Below are positions 30,172 to 61,531 of a DNA stretch of 64,000 nt, piece after piece. Both the position numbers and the translations under genes were made by a program. How positions within the stretch are numbered: the first letter of the stretch is position 1; each line of letters starts with the position of its first letter. The stretch is taken from assembly GCA_023150845.1 (NCBI GenBank), contig JAKLKD010000003.1:6847-70846 (forward strand), read 5' to 3'. The DNA comes from Myxococcota bacterium (GTDB lineage Bacteria > Myxococcota_A > UBA796 > CAJQPC01). The notes beneath the pieces are model-generated. The model had not been told where the DNA came from and ran no database searches. It saw only the letters and a program-made list of their open reading frames with translations.

Positions 30172-31893
<1,722 letters not shown>

Positions 31894-31904: not shown

Positions 31905-32192
31905 TCAGTTGATGATCGCGAGGATGTCCTCTTCCTTGATGACGATGTGGTCCTCACCGTCGAGCTTGATCTCGTTCTCCACCCACTTGCCCAGGAGCAC
32001 GGTGTCGCCGACCTTGACGCTCAAGGCGCGCACGCTGCCGTCGGACTGGCGGCGGCCGGGGCCCACGGCGACGACGGTCGCCTGCTGGGGCTTCTCCTTG
32101 GCGGACTCGGGGATGTAGAGGCCGCCGGAGGAGCGGACCTCGGCGCTCACGCGCTTGAGGAGCACACGGTCATGAAGGGGGGTGAAGGCCAT
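31905..32192 (-). CDS. groS: co-chaperonin GroES
   Basis: FTPLHDRVLLKR...GGLYIPESAKEKPQQATVVAVGPG; GGAGG RBS. Confidence 0.95.
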   Translation of the reverse strand: MAFTPLHDRVLLKRVSAEVRSSGGLYIPESAKEKPQQATVVAVGPGRRQSDGSVRALSVKVGDTVLLGKWVENEIKLDGEDHIVIKEEDILAIIN

Positions 32193-32365
32193 GGGAGTTC
32201 CTCCAGATGCGATGATTGACTTGTTGCGTTGACGCGAGCCCGAGGCTCACGAGGGGTCTGTTTTCGGAGGCAACGGGTAGGCACGAGCCCAGAGGGCGGC
32301 AAGCCCTCGGGACAAAAAACCGTGCGCGTCCTGGTCAACCCCCCTCGGGCCGCCGTGGCCCAAGG

Positions 32366-32397
32366 AACAAAAACGCCGCGCGACGAAGCGCGCGGCG
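32366..32397 (-). terminator. intrinsic (rho-independent) terminator, minus strand, inside the groES-dnaK intergenic region
   Basis: Perfect 9-bp GC stem (32374-32382 pairs with 32389-32397) and a 6-nt loop. On the minus strand it is followed by TTTTTGTT (plus-strand aacaaaaa at 32366-32373). Confidence 0.6.
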
Positions 32398-32497
32398 GAT
32401 CTTGTGAGAGACGACGTGTGGCCAGCTCCAGCACGCGCCTCCGGACCCCGTCGGAGCAGGTCAGGGCAGGGTGTTTGTCAGCCCCGCCGGGGTCACG
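32366..32497 (-). ncRNA. candidate ~130-nt sigma54-dependent small RNA, or an attenuated groESL leader
   Basis: Bounded by the sigma54 promoter (predicted start near 32497) and the intrinsic terminator. No ATG-initiated ORF, and no family recognised. Confidence 0.3.
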
Positions 32498-32506
32498 CCC
32501 CGGGAA

Positions 32507-32523
32507 ATGCAAGCGCCGTGCCA
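32507..32523 (-). promoter_or_regulatory. sigma54 (RpoN) -24/-12 promoter
   Basis: Minus strand reads TGGCACGGCGCTTGCAT. Both elements and the spacing match the consensus TGGCACG-N4-TTGCW exactly. Confidence 0.65.
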
Positions 32524-32837
32524 CCCCAAGGAACGCCCTCCTGAGGCGGATCCGCGGGCTGCGGGATCGCCATGTCGTGACATTTGGGTCGTGGTAGGCG
32601 CGACACGACGCGCCGCCGTGGAATGGGCCATTGACGCCCAGGACCCTGGGATTACCTTGCCGGCGCTCCGCTCCCCTGGCGGATCAAGCCGCAAAACGCG
32701 ACGCTTGACGGGCAGGGGGTCGCGATTAGCTCATGCGTCGTGAGGCCGGCTCCCCCCAACGAAGCCAGGCCAGCTTCCAGAAAAACTCCAGCCGAGCCAG
32801 GGACTAAGCGCCCGGGCCACCAAGAGGACGCTGATTT

Positions 32838-34742
<1,905 letters not shown>

Positions 34743-34822
34743 GCAAACCCCCAGTGAGCGCAGCGGCCTCGGCGTGAGCCGGGGCCTCCTGCATTCTGGG
34801 CGTGACGATTCGGAGGCAGCCC

Positions 34823-35941
34823 GTGGACAGCAAGCGTGACTACTACGAGGTGCTCGGTGTGCCTCGGGACGCCGACGCGGCGACGCTCAAGAAGGCGTTC
34901 CGTAAGCTGGCGATGCAGTACCACCCCGACCGCAACCCGGACAACCCCGAGGCCGAGGCGAAGTTCAAGGAGCTCTCCGAGGCCTACGAGGTGCTCTCCG
35001 ACGACCAGAAGCGCTCTACCTACGACCGCCACGGCTTCGATGGCCTGCGCGGCCAGGGCTACAACCCTGGCGCCCAGGACATGAACGACATCTTCTCCCA
35101 CTTCGGCGACATCTTCGGCGACCTCTTCGGGGGCGGCGGCGGGCGTCGGGGCGGGCGCGGCGCGGCGCGGCAGGGCCAAGACCTCGAGCTCGGGATGCGG
35201 CTTGAGTTCATGGAGGCCGTGAAGGGCTGCCAGAAGGAGGTGGAGATCACCCGGAACGCGCTCTGCGGCACCTGCGACGGCAGCGGCGCCAAGCCGGGCT
35301 CCAAGCCGGTGACCTGCACGACCTGTGGCGGCGTCGGCGAGGTGCTCCAGCAGCAGATGTTTCTGCGTATCCGCACGGTCTGCCCGGCCTGCCGTGGCCA
35401 AGGCAAGACGATCAGCGACCCCTGCCGCGACTGCTCGGGGCGGGGCCGGGTGCGGGCCGCGGAGAAGCTCACGGTGACGATCCCCGCCGGGGTCGACACC
35501 GGCAACCAGCTCCGCCTGGGCGGCAAGGGCGACTTCGGCGATCGTGGGGCGCCCCCGGGCGATCTCTACGTCAGCATCCAGGTGAAGGAGCACGAGCTCT
35601 TTAAGCGGGAGGGCCTCAACGTCTTCTGCCAGGTGCCCGTGAGCTACCCCCAGGCCTGCCTGGGCGCGGAGATCAAGGTGCCGACGGTCAACGGCGAAGA
35701 GACCCTGGAGGTCCCCCGCGCCACGCCGTCGGGCAAGGTCTTCACGCTCAAGGGCAAAGGCATCACCGGGGTGAACGGGCGCGGCCAAGGCAATCAACTC
35801 GTGCAGGTCGTCGTAGAGGTGCCCAAGAAGCTCACTCCTCGGGAAGAGGAGCTGATCCGTGAGCTGGCCGAGCTCCAGTCGGGCAAGGTCGGCGGCGAGA
35901 AGGGCTTCTGGCGAGACTTCTTCGACCGGCTGAGCAGCTAA
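34823..35941 (+). CDS. dnaJ: molecular chaperone DnaJ
   Basis: J domain ([15 protein letters not shown]), a G-rich linker and four CxxCxGxG zinc-finger repeats. The start is placed at the GTG at 34823, downstream of GGAGG; the tracked ORF starts at 34802. Confidence 0.92.
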
Positions 35942-57093: not shown

Positions 57094-58035
57094 TCAGGGG
57101 CAGATCGAGGAGCAGGTCGCCGCGGAGAGCGCCGACTCGCAGGAGTCCACGAGGCTCGACGAGTCGAAGCAGCGGTCGATGCCCGCGCCGGCCGTGCCGA
57201 CCTCGGAGCCGCTGGACGTGCCGCAGACGTCATCGCTGCCGTCCATGCCGTCGAAGGAGTCGGCCAGGAGGCTGTAGCCGCCGCCGCAGAGCACGTCGTT
57301 GCCGATGCCGCCGACCATGTTGTCGGTGTCCTCGTCACCGTTGAGCGTGTCGTGGCCGGAGCCGCCGTTGATGGTGTCGCCGCCGGGGCCGCCGAGGATG
57401 ATGTCGTTGCCACCCTCGCCGATCATCTCGTCGTTGCCCTCGAGACCCCAGAGGGTGTCGCCGCCGGGCCCGCCGAGGATGATGTCGTTGCCCGGGCTGC
57501 CGTAGATGGTGTCGTTGCCCTCTTCGCCCGCGAGGATGACCTTGAGCAAGGCGTTGCTGACGTCGGGGCCGTAGATCTCGTCGTCACCGCCGCCGCCGAA
57601 GATGCGAGCCGAGACGAGGGAGGTGCCGTAGGCGTTGGCGGAGTAGCCGGTGCTGGCGTCATTGAACGACAGCGAGGTGTCGCCCTTGGTGGTGCCCGAG
57701 AGGATGAGCTCGGCGAGGTCCGTCGTGTTGCTCAGGGTGCAGCAGAAGTTGTTGCCGTCACCATCGACGCCGTAGGCGCTGTACTCGCTGTTGGCCGAGT
57801 CCCAGACTAGGTAGCCGGTGCCCGAGGCGTTGCTGGCGTTCTGCGCGAGGTTGCAGTTGAAGGAGGTGCCGATACGCGCGCAGATGTTGGCCGCGCCCCC
57901 CGCCTTGCAGCTCGCCGTCGCGTAGCTCGCCGGACAGGCCGCCTCAGCGCTGCCGATCGAAGAGAGGATGATCACGCCCACAGCAAAGAGCTGTCCCGCC
58001 ACTCCACGAAGCCCAGAAGAACTGTCGTTTGTCAT
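57094..58035 (-). CDS. RTX-type calcium-binding repeat protein
   Basis: A run of GGxGxDxux nonapeptides (GNDTIYGSPGNDIILGGPGGDTLWGLEGNDEMIGEGGNDIILGGPGGDTINGGSGHDTL). The start is set at MTNDSS (cat at 58033-58035). Confidence 0.8.
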   Translation of the reverse strand: MTNDSSSGLRGVAGQLFAVGVIILSSIGSAEAACPASYATASCKAGGAANICARIGTSFNCNLAQNASNASGTGYLVWDSANSEYSAYGVDGDGNNFCCTLSNTTDLAELILSGTTKGDTSLSFNDASTGYSANAYGTSLVSARIFGGGGDDEIYGPDVSNALLKVILAGEEGNDTIYGSPGNDIILGGPGGDTLWGLEGNDEMIGEGGNDIILGGPGGDTINGGSGHDTLNGDEDTDNMVGGIGNDVLCGGGYSLLADSFDGMDGSDDVCGTSSGSEVGTAGAGIDRCFDSSSLVDSCESALSAATCSSICP

Positions 58036-58167
58036 CACACACCTCCGTGATCGCAAACTCGGCAGAAGACTTCCCGTCTTGGGAGAGCGCCCCTGCGTAC
58101 GTGGTCCCGACTCTTTCTCTCCACATTCTTAAAGTACCATAAGCGAATGTAATGTTAAGTCTATTTT

Positions 58168-58274: not shown

Positions 58275-59690
58275 TCAGATCGAATCGTCATTCTGAGCGA
58301 TTTCTCCCTCCGAAGATGGCTCCCCCCGATCGCTCGCGGCCCACTCCGCCTCCCGTCGATAGAGGGTTCGGGCCGTGATCCCCAAGAGGTTCCCGGCGAG
58401 CACCTTGTCGCCCCCCGCGTGGCGCAACGTCTCTTCGATCATCCGACGCTCCACGACCTTGAGCGGTGTGCCGACGGCGAAGGACAAGGTGGCGCGGCCC
58501 CCGGCGAGGTGGCGAACTGCGCCAGGGAGGTCGTCCACGCTGATCAGCTCGCCTCGGGCGAGGACCACGGCGCGCTCGATGGCGTTCTCCAGCTCACGGA
58601 CGTTCCCTGGCCAGGTGTGCGCCATGAGCGCGTCGAGCGCTTCAGCGGTGAACGCGCGAACCGCCTTGTTGTTCTTCGTAGCGAAGCGCTCCAAGAAGGT
58701 CGCCGCGAGCAGGGGGATGTCCTCGGGGCGCTCCCGCAGGGGCGGCACCCGGAGGCGGATGACGTCGAGGCGGTAGTAGAGGTCCTCCCGGAGCCGCCCG
58801 GAGCGAACGGCGGCCTCGATGTCCCGGTTCGTCGCGGCGATGATGCGGGCGTCGGCCCGGTGGGTGACCGTGCCGCCCACACGCTCGTACTCACCCTCCT
58901 GCAGCACCCGCAGGAGCTTCACCTGGATGAGCGGGGAGACCTCGGTGATCTCGTCCAAGAAGAGGGTGCCGCCCCGGGCGAGGTCAAAGCGGCCCTCTTT
59001 GCGGGCCACGGCCCCGGTAAAGGCCCCGGCCTCGTGGCCAAAGAGCTCGGACTCCAGGAGCGCCTCGGGGATCGCCGCGCAGTTCACGGTGATGAGGCGA
59101 CCGGCGGCGCGGCGGCTGCGCTGGTGGATGAGCCGGGCGACCCGGCTCTTGCCGGTGCCCGACTCCCCGGTGAGCAGCACGCTGGCGTCGGTCGGGGCGA
59201 TCTGCTGCAGCTCCTCCAGCACGGCGCGCATCGCAAACGACGAGCCGATGAGCTCCTCGCCCCGGGCCCCACGCTCCTGGGCCAAGGCGTCGCGCAGGCG
59301 CTGGTTCTCCAGGATGAGCCCCCGCTTCTCGAAGGCCTTCCGTAAGGAGCCGACGAGCTCTTGGCGGCGCAGGGGCTTGGTCACGTAGTCGTAGGCGCCC
59401 TCCTTCATGGCCTCCACCGCCGTCTCCACGGTGCCGAAGGCGGTCATCACGATGACCTCGACGTCCGGCGCCAAAGACTTCACCGCGCGCAGCAGCTCCA
59501 GGCCCGACATGCCCGGCATCTTGAGGTCGGTGAGCACCACATCCACGGGCTCTCGGCGCAGGCGGTCCATCCCGGCGCGGCCGTCCGGGGCGTGCACGAC
59601 CTCCCAGCCCTCACGCTGGATGATGCGCTCTAAGGTGACGCGGTTGGCCTCTTCATCATCGACGACGAGCACTTTGGGCATGATGGACAC
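58275..59690 (-). CDS. sigma54-dependent response regulator (NtrC family)
   Basis: Receiver domain (VLVVDDE..DLKMPGM), AAA+ module with GESGTGKS and GAFTGA, and a C-terminal Fis-type HTH. Confidence 0.92.
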   Translation of the reverse strand: MSIMPKVLVVDDEEANRVTLERIIQREGWEVVHAPDGRAGMDRLRREPVDVVLTDLKMPGMSGLELLRAVKSLAPDVEVIVMTAFGTVETAVEAMKEGAYDYVTKPLRRQELVGSLRKAFEKRGLILENQRLRDALAQERGARGEELIGSSFAMRAVLEELQQIAPTDASVLLTGESGTGKSRVARLIHQRSRRAAGRLITVNCAAIPEALLESELFGHEAGAFTGAVARKEGRFDLARGGTLFLDEITEVSPLIQVKLLRVLQEGEYERVGGTVTHRADARIIAATNRDIEAAVRSGRLREDLYYRLDVIRLRVPPLRERPEDIPLLAATFLERFATKNNKAVRAFTAEALDALMAHTWPGNVRELENAIERAVVLARGELISVDDLPGAVRHLAGGRATLSFAVGTPLKVVERRMIEETLRHAGGDKVLAGNLLGITARTLYRREAEWAASDRGEPSSEGEIAQNDDSI

Positions 59691-59725
59691 TCTGTCAGTT
59701 GAAACGACAGAATGTCAGATCGGTG

Positions 59726-61531
59726 TCACTCTGTCAATCTCGCCGCCGGGAGCTCCAGGACGATGCGGGCCCCGGCGGAGCGCCGCTCGGCGCGCACCAC
59801 GCCGCCGTGGTCCTCTAGGATCTGCCGTGTGATGGCGAGGCCTAGCCCCGTGCCCGAGGCCTTCGTCGAGAAGAAGGGGTCGAAGGCGCGCTCGGCCTCT
59901 TCAGCGGTGAACCCGGAGCCGTCGTCATCGATGGTGAAACGCACCGTGGCCTCGTCGCGCTCGACCCGCACGGTGAGCTGCTTCGCCCCGGCCTCGACGG
60001 CGTTCCGGGCGACGTTGAGCAGGGCGCGGCGGAGCTGGTGGCCGTCGAGGTCCACAGGCGGGCCCTCGGCGGCCTCGACGGTGAGGCTGACCCCGGCGCG
60101 GCGCAGCTCCTCGTCGAGCAGGCTGACCACGGAGCCGACCAGCGCCGCGGGGTCTTCAGGGCTGAGGTTCGGCGCCGGGCGCCGGGCCAAGGTGAGGTAG
60201 TGCTCGGTGACCCGCTCCAGGTGGCGGATCTCGGCGGTGATGGTGCCGAGGATGGCCCGGGCCTCGTCGCGGCGCTCGGCGGGCAGGTCCTCCAGGTCGT
60301 CGCTCAGGAGCTCGGCGTTCAGCGACAGGGCGTTCAGGGGGTTTCGCACCTCGTGGGTGATCTGGGCGAGCATCTGGCCGACCAAGGCGAGGCGCTCGGA
60401 GCGGGCGAGGCGCGCCTGGTGGTGCACACGCTCGGTGACGTCTTCGCCGACGAGGATGCTCCCGCCCCGGAACGGCACCCGCCTCAGATCGACGAGGCGC
60501 CCGGCCAAGGGGGCGGCCTCGACGCCGTCCCCTTCGCCGCTGAGCCGCAAGGACTCGGGGAGGGGATCGCCCTCACGCACACCAAAGAGCAGCTCCGCGG
60601 CGGGGTTGGAGAGGGTGACCCGGCCATCGCTCTCGACGATGAGCGCGAGGCGGATGGAGTCGAGCACCGAGCGCAGCTCCGCCCGGGCGCGCTGCAGGGC
60701 GCCCTCCCGCTCCTCGATGGCCCCGGCCATGATGTTGATCTCCTCAGCGAGCACGCCGAGCTCGTCCTTTCGCTGCAGCTCCACCCGGGCGCCGACGTCC
60801 CCTCCGGCGATGCGCCGCACCTGCTGGGTGAGGCGCCCGATGGGCCGCAGCGCGAGCACGGCCAGCGCCAACATCACGAGCCCGGCGAGGAGCGCGGTGA
60901 GGCCCAGGGCCCCGGCGACGACCAGGGCCTCCCGCTGGGCGACGGCGGTGCGCTCAGACACGCGGCGGATGCGGGTCTCGACGCGGGTGGAGAGCTTCTC
61001 TAGCTCCGAGCGCAGGGCCTGCCGGGACCGCGAGAGCTCCGGGGCCAAGGCGCGCACCCCAGCGGCGTCTTGTTTGTCGGCGAGGTCGAGGGCCTGGGTG
61101 CAGATCGTGAAGTAGGTCTGGTTGAGGCTCGCGAGGCTCTGGAGCTGGCTGTCTAAGGTGGCGAGGTTCGCCCGCTCCTGCTTGAGCCCGACCTTCGGCA
61201 GCACCCGGGCGACGATGGCCTGGCCCTCGACGGTCTGGTCCTCGATCAGCCGGGTGTAGAGGTAGAGGTTCGAGCGCTGGGCGGCGAGGCGCCGGGGCGG
61301 GTCGGTCAGGAGCCGCTCGGGGTCGATGTCCACCCGGACGAGGGCGCCGTCCATACGCGCGACGGTGCGGGAGAGCGGCACATAGCCGAGGTCCAAGGCC
61401 GTGAGGCCCTCGCCGAGGGCGCGGAGCTGCCAGATCCCGTAGCCGATGGCCAAGGTAAAGAAGGTGAAGGCGAGGAGGTAAGCGCCGAGGATTCGCGCCC
61501 GTAAGGAGGCCCGCTGGAGCAGACCTCTCAT
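59726..61531 (-). CDS. sensor histidine kinase (TM-HAMP-PAS-HisKA-HATPase)
   Basis: HAMP (LRPIGRLTQQVRRIAGGD), H-box (ITHEVRNPLNAL), and N/G boxes (NAVEA, DDGSG, GTGLGLAI). Confidence 0.88.
   Translation of the reverse strand: MRGLLQRASLRARILGAYLLAFTFFTLAIGYGIWQLRALGEGLTALDLGYVPLSRTVARMDGALVRVDIDPERLLTDPPRRLAAQRSNLYLYTRLIEDQTVEGQAIVARVLPKVGLKQERANLATLDSQLQSLASLNQTYFTICTQALDLADKQDAAGVRALAPELSRSRQALRSELEKLSTRVETRIRRVSERTAVAQREALVVAGALGLTALLAGLVMLALAVLALRPIGRLTQQVRRIAGGDVGARVELQRKDELGVLAEEINIMAGAIEEREGALQRARAELRSVLDSIRLALIVESDGRVTLSNPAAELLFGVREGDPLPESLRLSGEGDGVEAAPLAGRLVDLRRVPFRGGSILVGEDVTERVHHQARLARSERLALVGQMLAQITHEVRNPLNALSLNAELLSDDLEDLPAERRDEARAILGTITAEIRHLERVTEHYLTLARRPAPNLSPEDPAALVGSVVSLLDEELRRAGVSLTVEAAEGPPVDLDGHQLRRALLNVARNAVEAGAKQLTVRVERDEATVRFTIDDDGSGFTAEEAERAFDPFFSTKASGTGLGLAITRQILEDHGGVVRAERRSAGARIVLELPAARLTE

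Follow-up and report, generated by a model that had tools for sequence, protein, structure and literature searches.

The 64-kb stretch of DNA analysed here (the window) carries groESL on its minus strand and dnaKJ on its plus strand, and the two operons diverge from an intergenic region of 645 bp between groES and dnaK. The genes are arranged as follows.

30172-31845, minus strand: groEL
31905-32192, minus strand: groES
32838-34742, plus strand: dnaK
34802-35941, plus strand: dnaJ

The elements discussed below lie in or at the edge of this intergenic region.

32705-32732, plus strand: promoter-like boxes of dnaK (P1), TTGACG-N16-TAGCTC
32631-32658, plus strand: promoter-like boxes of dnaK (P2), TTGACG-N16-TACCTT
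32576-32593, minus strand: candidate upstream activator sequence, the dyad CACGAC-CCAAAT-GTCACG, recognised by its fixed spacing to the promoter across lineages
32507-32523, minus strand: predicted sigma54 (-24/-12) promoter TGGCAC-GGCGC-TTGCAT, with exact consensus and conservation and a predicted +1 at about 32497
32366-32498, minus strand: predicted three-stem-loop small RNA, about 132 nt long, from the minimum-energy fold and conservation
32442-32497, minus strand: stem-loop 1, a 14-bp interrupted helix with a 23-nt apical loop, from a covariance model and pair counts
32459-32471, minus strand: conserved loop motif CCCUGCCCUGACC (family core UGCCCYGACC), a candidate seed or protein-binding site
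32408-32441, minus strand: stem-loop 2 with a conserved GCUGGA at its apex, from separate minimum-energy folds
32366-32397, minus strand: predicted intrinsic terminator CGCCGCGCG-CUUCGU-CGCGCGGCG followed by UUUUUGUU, from a terminator scan
32275-32303, minus strand: promoter-like boxes of groES, CTTGCC (32303-32298) and CTACCC (32280-32275), outside the RNA
32147-32524, minus strand: spurious 125-aa ORF that spans the small RNA and overlaps the start of groES

The initial annotation of this DNA had described a promoter matching the sigma54 -24/-12 consensus exactly in sequence and spacing, a perfect 9-bp GC hairpin at 32366-32397 with an A/T run of a kind rare in such GC-rich DNA, a segment between them with no credible ORF, and an intergenic region free of CIRCE elements. 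Every one of these features was found where it had been placed. On the minus strand, positions 32523-32507 read TGGCACGGCGCTTGCAT, within which TGGCACGGCGCTTGCA (32523-32508) is the sole exact match to TGGCAC-N5-TTGCW in the 64-kb window, where 0.01 would be expected from shuffled sequences; its GG at -24 and GC at -12 are exactly 10 nt apart. When one mismatch is allowed, shuffles yield 0.93 sigma54-like matches per window, and therefore the motif alone would not be significant at that level. No other pair of sigma54 promoter and dyad was found in the window, and no rpoN gene lies within its 64 kb.

The terminator consists of a stem of nine G-C pairs (32397-32374) closed by a 6-nt loop and followed by TTTTTGTT; the hairpin has a predicted energy of -19.2 kcal/mol, and seven of the next ten bases are T. 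It is the sole perfect 9-bp hairpin with at least five T in the next eight bases on both strands of the 64-kb window, which is 70.3% GC and has just 10 runs of at least five A or T. A CIRCE/HrcA operator (TTAGCACTC-N9-GAGTGCTAA) was not found in the whole window, with up to five mismatches allowed, which extends the absence of this element beyond the intergenic region.

Close relatives of the window (the window clade) are ten contigs with an identical GroES (L081-L090) together with L091-L093, L195 and L233, all with the same intergenic region. Within this clade pairwise identity is 66% upstream of the promoter, 85% in the promoter itself, where changes are confined to the spacer, the first T and the last base, and 98.8% over the RNA, counted from its predicted start through the terminator; the 175 nt between terminator and groES are conserved at 97%. 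The switch from variable to invariant sequence occurs at alignment column 342, equivalent to position 32498 of the window and one base off the +1 at 32497 that is predicted from the -12 GC. The only substitutions within the RNA are a C-to-U change, which turns a G-C pair of stem-loop 1 into G-U, and changes in the terminator, where the loop alone varies (CTTCGT, CTCTGT, CTCCGT). An identity of 98.8% next to one of 66% is what purifying selection on a structured RNA with its start at a putative sigma54 promoter would be expected to leave. The predicted 132-nt RNA has a minimum-energy fold of -68.1 kcal/mol (z = -3.3), and none of 200 shuffles folds as well; the three-hairpin fold alone makes up 14% of the ensemble and equals the centroid.

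More distant loci with divergent dnaK and groES were gathered via GroES homologues. Among the matches listed in a GroES search of genome contigs, most were from Alphaproteobacteria at up to 65% identity, and L002, L004, L009, L044 and L073, with no others, were syntenic. A metagenome scan with the pattern CCCTGCCCTGACC-N18-40-TGCTGGA returned 120 matches, nearly all of them chance occurrences in genes; the genuine ones were L171, which is the same locus as L002, and L195. The distant relatives with the module are L002 (a Myxococcota MAG), L094-L096, L220-L221, L223-L226, L227-L229, L230-L232 and L235-L236. In these lineages, whose GroES is 63-70% identical to that of the window, the core UGCCCYGACC lies 52-68 nt past GGCAC-N5-YTGCA and is followed by a hairpin, and in all lineages the neighbours of the module are dnaK and groES. 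The initial annotation had made its promoter depend on conservation in relatives. Across the window clade, L002, L094, L220, L223, L227, L230 and L235, loss of the promoter was not seen: GGCAC-N5-YTGCA is invariant in all distinct module variants examined (about seven lineages), while the 5-nt spacers and both flanks differ.

Three further arrangements were found. Promoter and core are missing from the syntenic loci L004, L009, L044, L073 and L097, which keep the groES boxes, and likewise from L098, a non-syntenic locus that also keeps these boxes and whose upstream neighbour is not dnaK. In L234, which is close to the L227 group, dyad, promoter and RNA body are gone, and the hairpin, the T-tract and the groES promoter remain. 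Finally, in L223-L226 the whole module, comprising dyad, promoter, RNA and hairpin, is inverted and directed at dnaK (L223:553-752), and in L223 the dnaK boxes TTGACG-N16-TACCTC lie just downstream of the hairpin of the inverted module.

The 3' end of the predicted RNA differs in quality between lineages. The window clade and the type B lineages have strong terminators (9-11 G-C pairs and then U5-U8). The U-tract after the last hairpin is absent in L094 and L220 and weak in L223, so that some lineages may have no discrete 3' end, and the terminator of L002 is weaker than that of the window. In L234 the retained hairpin and TTTTCTTTTT precede the groES -35 box by about 20 nt (L234:469-864). Since the hairpin persists there without promoter and RNA body, it may have a second role; together with its T-tract it may also serve as an UP element or an insulator.

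Stem-loop 1 is the part of the RNA for which pairing could be followed across lineages. MAFFT alignments of the full RNA were structurally out of register for stem-loop 2 and the terminator, and the covariance model was consequently limited to stem-loop 1. It matched the window at 32440-32498 with 79.9 bits and the relatives with 78.7 (L223, on the opposite strand), 69.4 (L002), 24.3 (L220) and 17.9 bits (L094), and it found no second credible match, and no second copy of the RNA, in the window. In the alignment of six distinct sequences fitted to the model, 92% of cells are paired and seven of the 14 pairs have changed on both sides. None of 500 shuffles reached the observed values, and slid partners were paired in 30-54%. 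The covariation analysis that the initial annotation had proposed was positive for this helix, in a small sample and on an alignment that follows the model.

The loop motif of stem-loop 1 is invariant in the type A lineages, takes the form CGUGCCCYGACCC in type B, and occurs once in the window. Stem-loop 2 recurs in separate folds of the window, L002, L223, L094 and L220, with a differing outer helix and a preserved apical CUGGA, and independent folds of the five lineages give the same layout of stem-loop 1, stem-loop 2 and terminal hairpin. Type B (L227, L230, L235) is without stem-loop 2, and its motif stands in a large loop whose closing helix varies in sequence. The single GGA at the apex of stem-loop 2 was considered by eye as a CsrA site and rejected; a lone site would not turn the RNA into a CsrA sponge.

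The dyad upstream of the promoter is constant in position. In the window the G of its GAC is at -67 from the T of TGGCAC, and GAC-N6-GTC with CRCGAC flanks occurs at -66 to -68 in the window clade, L002, L094, L220 and the inverted L223, and at -57/-58 in L227 and L230. CRCGAC-N6-GTC is present in every module-bearing lineage at a fixed distance from the promoter, in surroundings that are otherwise variable and unalignable. The dyad of L220 is a perfect palindrome (CACGAC-N6-GTCGTG), that of L235 is also perfect (GCGAC-ATGCTC-GTCGC), and that of L223 has moved along with the inverted module. Its form resembles the binding site of an enhancer-binding protein (EBP), and we infer that a protein binds there. 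Between the dyad and the -24 box, an A/T-rich stretch that looks like an IHF site (TTTCAA-N4-TTR) was noticed in L094 (2100-2166), L220 (540-597) and L002 (3700-3732); the window clade has GC-rich variable DNA at this place.

Activators of the type in question are encoded elsewhere in the window.

58275-61531, minus strand: two-component pair of an NtrC-type EBP (Response_reg, Sigma54_activat, HTH_8) and a HAMP-HisKA-HATPase kinase

From this pair it follows that the organism uses such activators. The EBP sits 26 kb from the module, and nothing ties the pair to the dyad. An RTX-repeat protein (57094-58056) adjoins the two genes.

The chaperone operons have promoter-like boxes of their own, which for dnaK as for groES are conserved and occur in module-less relatives too. 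At the position matching the groES boxes of the window, TTGACG-N16/17-(C)TA(C/A)C is found with or without the module, as seen in L002, L004, L009, L044, L073, L094, L097, L098, L220, L223, L227, L230, L234 and L235. The start of groES is about 174-175 nt past the T-tract of the terminator. The three chaperone box pairs of the window are similar, and the pattern TTGACG-N16/17-(C)TA(C/A)C, seen before groES in every syntenic relative, resembles RpoH-type heat-shock promoters (CTTG-N17-18-CYTA). An inverted repeat overlapping the groES -35 box, GAGGGC-TTGCC-GCCCTC (about 32292-32308, minus strand), is conserved throughout the window clade; it may be a repressor operator. In the groES leader (32193-32215, minus strand) the ribosome-binding site GGAGG is followed by AACUCC, and a GGAG-GAA-CUCC pairing right before the AUG may form a weak occluding hairpin; this leader matched no thermometer in Rfam. 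In one variant of the window clade, L092 (1555-1815), a 70-bp deletion removes the groES -35 and -10 boxes and places the module directly upstream of the groES 5' UTR, which may reflect a genuine variant reliant on read-through or an assembly artefact.

What the comparison of sequences shows is the elements themselves, how they are conserved and spaced, the covarying stem, and the module in its inverted form. Taken as a unit, they form what is, by its sequence, a module of putative activator site, promoter, structured RNA and terminator that is conserved in several uncultured Myxococcota-like lineages. The initial annotation had left two readings of the segment side by side, a sigma54-dependent small RNA and a sigma54-driven groESL leader with an attenuator. 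We favour the first, and the locus is probably a free-standing small RNA gene dependent on sigma54 and an activator. This reading is preferred because in L223-L226 the module has been turned round as one piece and points at dnaK, because the groES boxes lie downstream of the terminator and occur in module-less relatives as well, and because the RNA has a conserved, covarying hairpin with a conserved loop motif. The strong canonical terminators of the window clade and type B, and a fold that shows no competing antiterminator, further argue for an independent gene.

The second reading holds that the sigma54 promoter is an additional, EBP-controlled promoter of a chaperone operon (groESL, or dnaKJ where the module is inverted) and that the RNA is an attenuating 5' leader, possibly with a dual function. 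We consider this unlikely, though it has several points in its favour. HsfA, a sigma54 EBP, serves the heat-shock gene lonD in Myxococcus. In L094 and L220 the last hairpin is without a U-tract and the groES -35 box comes immediately after it, and the U-tract of L223 is weak; the L092 variant keeps the module without the groES boxes; and the 175 nt from terminator to groES are conserved almost as strictly as the RNA. The module also lies always directly upstream of, and co-directional with, one chaperone operon; however, this carries little weight, because between divergent operons either orientation faces one. Set against these points are the same strong terminators, the separate conserved boxes downstream that are present also without the module, the clean three-hairpin fold with no competing antiterminator, and L234, which has lost the module and nevertheless retains the groES promoter. 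An attenuator or riboswitch leader in the strict sense, with mutually exclusive terminator and antiterminator and no further promoter downstream, does not agree with what was seen: the RNA has a single stable fold, a conserved promoter precedes groES, and no cis-regulatory family of Rfam matched.

Two other explanations have very little probability left. That promoter-like and terminator-like motifs arose by chance in a non-functional spacer would agree with the one-mismatch expectation of about one sigma54-like match per window, but it is effectively refuted by the comparative data, given the exact promoter match (0.01 expected per window), the terminator unique in the window, the conservation of promoter, terminator, dyad at fixed spacing and RNA core despite GroES identities of 63-70%, and the covariation of stem-loop 1. 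A protein-coding role, be it for a separate small protein or for a portion of the 125-aa ORF (32147-32524), is just as implausible: an open frame does span the region and an 86-aa ORF was called over the homologue in L235, but the ORF starts within the promoter and overlaps groES out of frame, it has no ribosome-binding site, length differences between lineages are not multiples of three, and conservation tracks base-pairing, not codons. The 125-aa ORF is ruled out by the 1-2-nt indels that disrupt it in the alignment of near-identical relatives, in keeping with the original view that the segment has no credible ORF. The gene caller placed the 86-aa ORF in a similar manner over the module homologues of both L235 and L236.

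For the small RNA gene, transcription, dependence on sigma54 and an EBP, action in trans and any link to stress are what we infer by analogy with sigma54-dependent small RNAs, and a mechanism may be proposed on this basis. An EBP would bind some 87 bp ahead of the start, at the dyad CACGAC-N6-GTCACG (32593-32576), and, once bound, would activate sigma54-RNA polymerase at TGGCAC-N5-TTGCA (32523-32508). Transcription from near 32497/8 to the hairpin with its U-tract (32397-32366) would yield an RNA of roughly 132 nt, folded into three stem-loops, with the C-rich CCCUGCCCUGACC single-stranded in the 23-nt loop of stem-loop 1. Most likely, the loop would act in trans as a seed on G-rich mRNA sites (GGUCRGGGCA-like); a role as a protein-binding site is the less likely alternative.

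As to targets, duplex energies of the loop with the groES and dnaK leaders were no better than those of shuffles in three lineages, and no conserved site complementary to the core was found in the flanking operons. A role in proteostasis or stress is suggested by the place of the gene, which is syntenically locked between dnaKJ and groESL. The RNA could even form a post-transcriptional arm of a sigma54/EBP stress pathway in proteostasis, either as an EBP-induced riboregulator whose loop acts on mRNAs of heat-shock regulators or chaperone clients, or as a leader with conditional read-through that puts groESL or dnaKJ under EBP control, or as both; we offer this as a speculative proposal that we consider unlikely. 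If it is true, heat-shock control would have a further layer, based on a small RNA and separate from RpoH, HrcA/CIRCE and HspR/HAIR.

The RNA was compared with known families and systems. An Rfam scan, also proposed in the initial annotation, gave no match over the whole window at gathering thresholds (Rfam 15), and at E-values up to 10 the segment 32100-32900 returned only noise far below threshold (mir-1842, a lncRNA and P27). In the literature we found no description of a sigma54-dependent small RNA at dnaK-groES. The predicted RNA would be a new family of a known type, for which Pxr, Qrr and GlmY may be compared.

Pxr of Myxococcus xanthus and related Cystobacterineae is preceded by a predicted sigma54 promoter, upstream of which lies an enhancer-binding region; the RNA is about 108 nt long with three stem-loops, and its function needs the loop of stem-loop 1 (PMC5684412, PMC5568312). 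It is always found between pxrR (nla19), which encodes an NtrC-like regulator, and a NADH dehydrogenase gene (PMC5568312). The predicted RNA described here is like Pxr in its predicted sigma54 promoter and its three predicted stem-loops; the dyad upstream is a candidate activator site, and the loop of stem-loop 1 a candidate seed. Whereas Pxr lies downstream of pxrR, the present RNA lies between dnaK and groES with no adjoining EBP. For the comparison, the last 66 nt of Pxr at its 3' end were reconstructed from published primers; they aligned to our RNA with a score of 15 against a shuffle mean of 15.2, and a search via Rfam gave no Pxr match at E-values up to 10, although Rfam 15 may lack a Pxr model. 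Owing to the different location and to an alignment of the 3' part no better than shuffles, membership in the Pxr family is not supported, and Pxr would be the closest analogue rather than a demonstrated homologue.

Qrr of Vibrio (LuxO and sigma54) and GlmY/GlmZ of Enterobacteria (GlrR and sigma54) are about 100-200 nt long, need sigma54 and a response-regulator EBP bound upstream, end at intrinsic terminators and act in trans via conserved single-stranded motifs (PMC10162802, PMC7073468). They share no sequence or Rfam similarity with the dnaK-groES RNA and belong to another phylum and genomic context; moreover, they have established targets and partner proteins (Hfq, RapZ), whereas the present RNA is known from its sequence. 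Qrr and GlmY/GlmZ would thus be functional analogues only.

CIRCE/HrcA operators, RpoH promoters and RNA thermometers of the ROSE type likewise sit upstream of groESL or dnaK. RpoH-like boxes (CTTGAC-N17-CCTAC) do adjoin the module; the window has no CIRCE, and no ROSE or other Rfam thermometer matched. Unlike these cis-elements, the module has a predicted sigma54 promoter and terminator of its own, and where relatives have it inverted or have lost it, the chaperone promoters are still there.

To the best of our knowledge, only Qrr, GlmY/Z, Pxr and a few other small RNAs depend on sigma54, and the small-RNA biology of Myxococcota that we know of is almost limited to Pxr. Each sigma54-dependent small RNA has revealed how a two-component signal becomes post-transcriptional control. 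The module is found in uncultured hosts, and its immediate impact is moderate; it stands out for its completeness, and its position between the chaperone operons hints that EBP signalling and proteostasis may be linked. Relatives in which it has been inverted or deleted offer ready-made genetic controls. If transcribed as predicted, the RNA would provide a seed alignment for a new RNA family, a candidate dyad for finding the cognate EBP, and a handle on the regulation of stress and proteostasis in Myxococcota.
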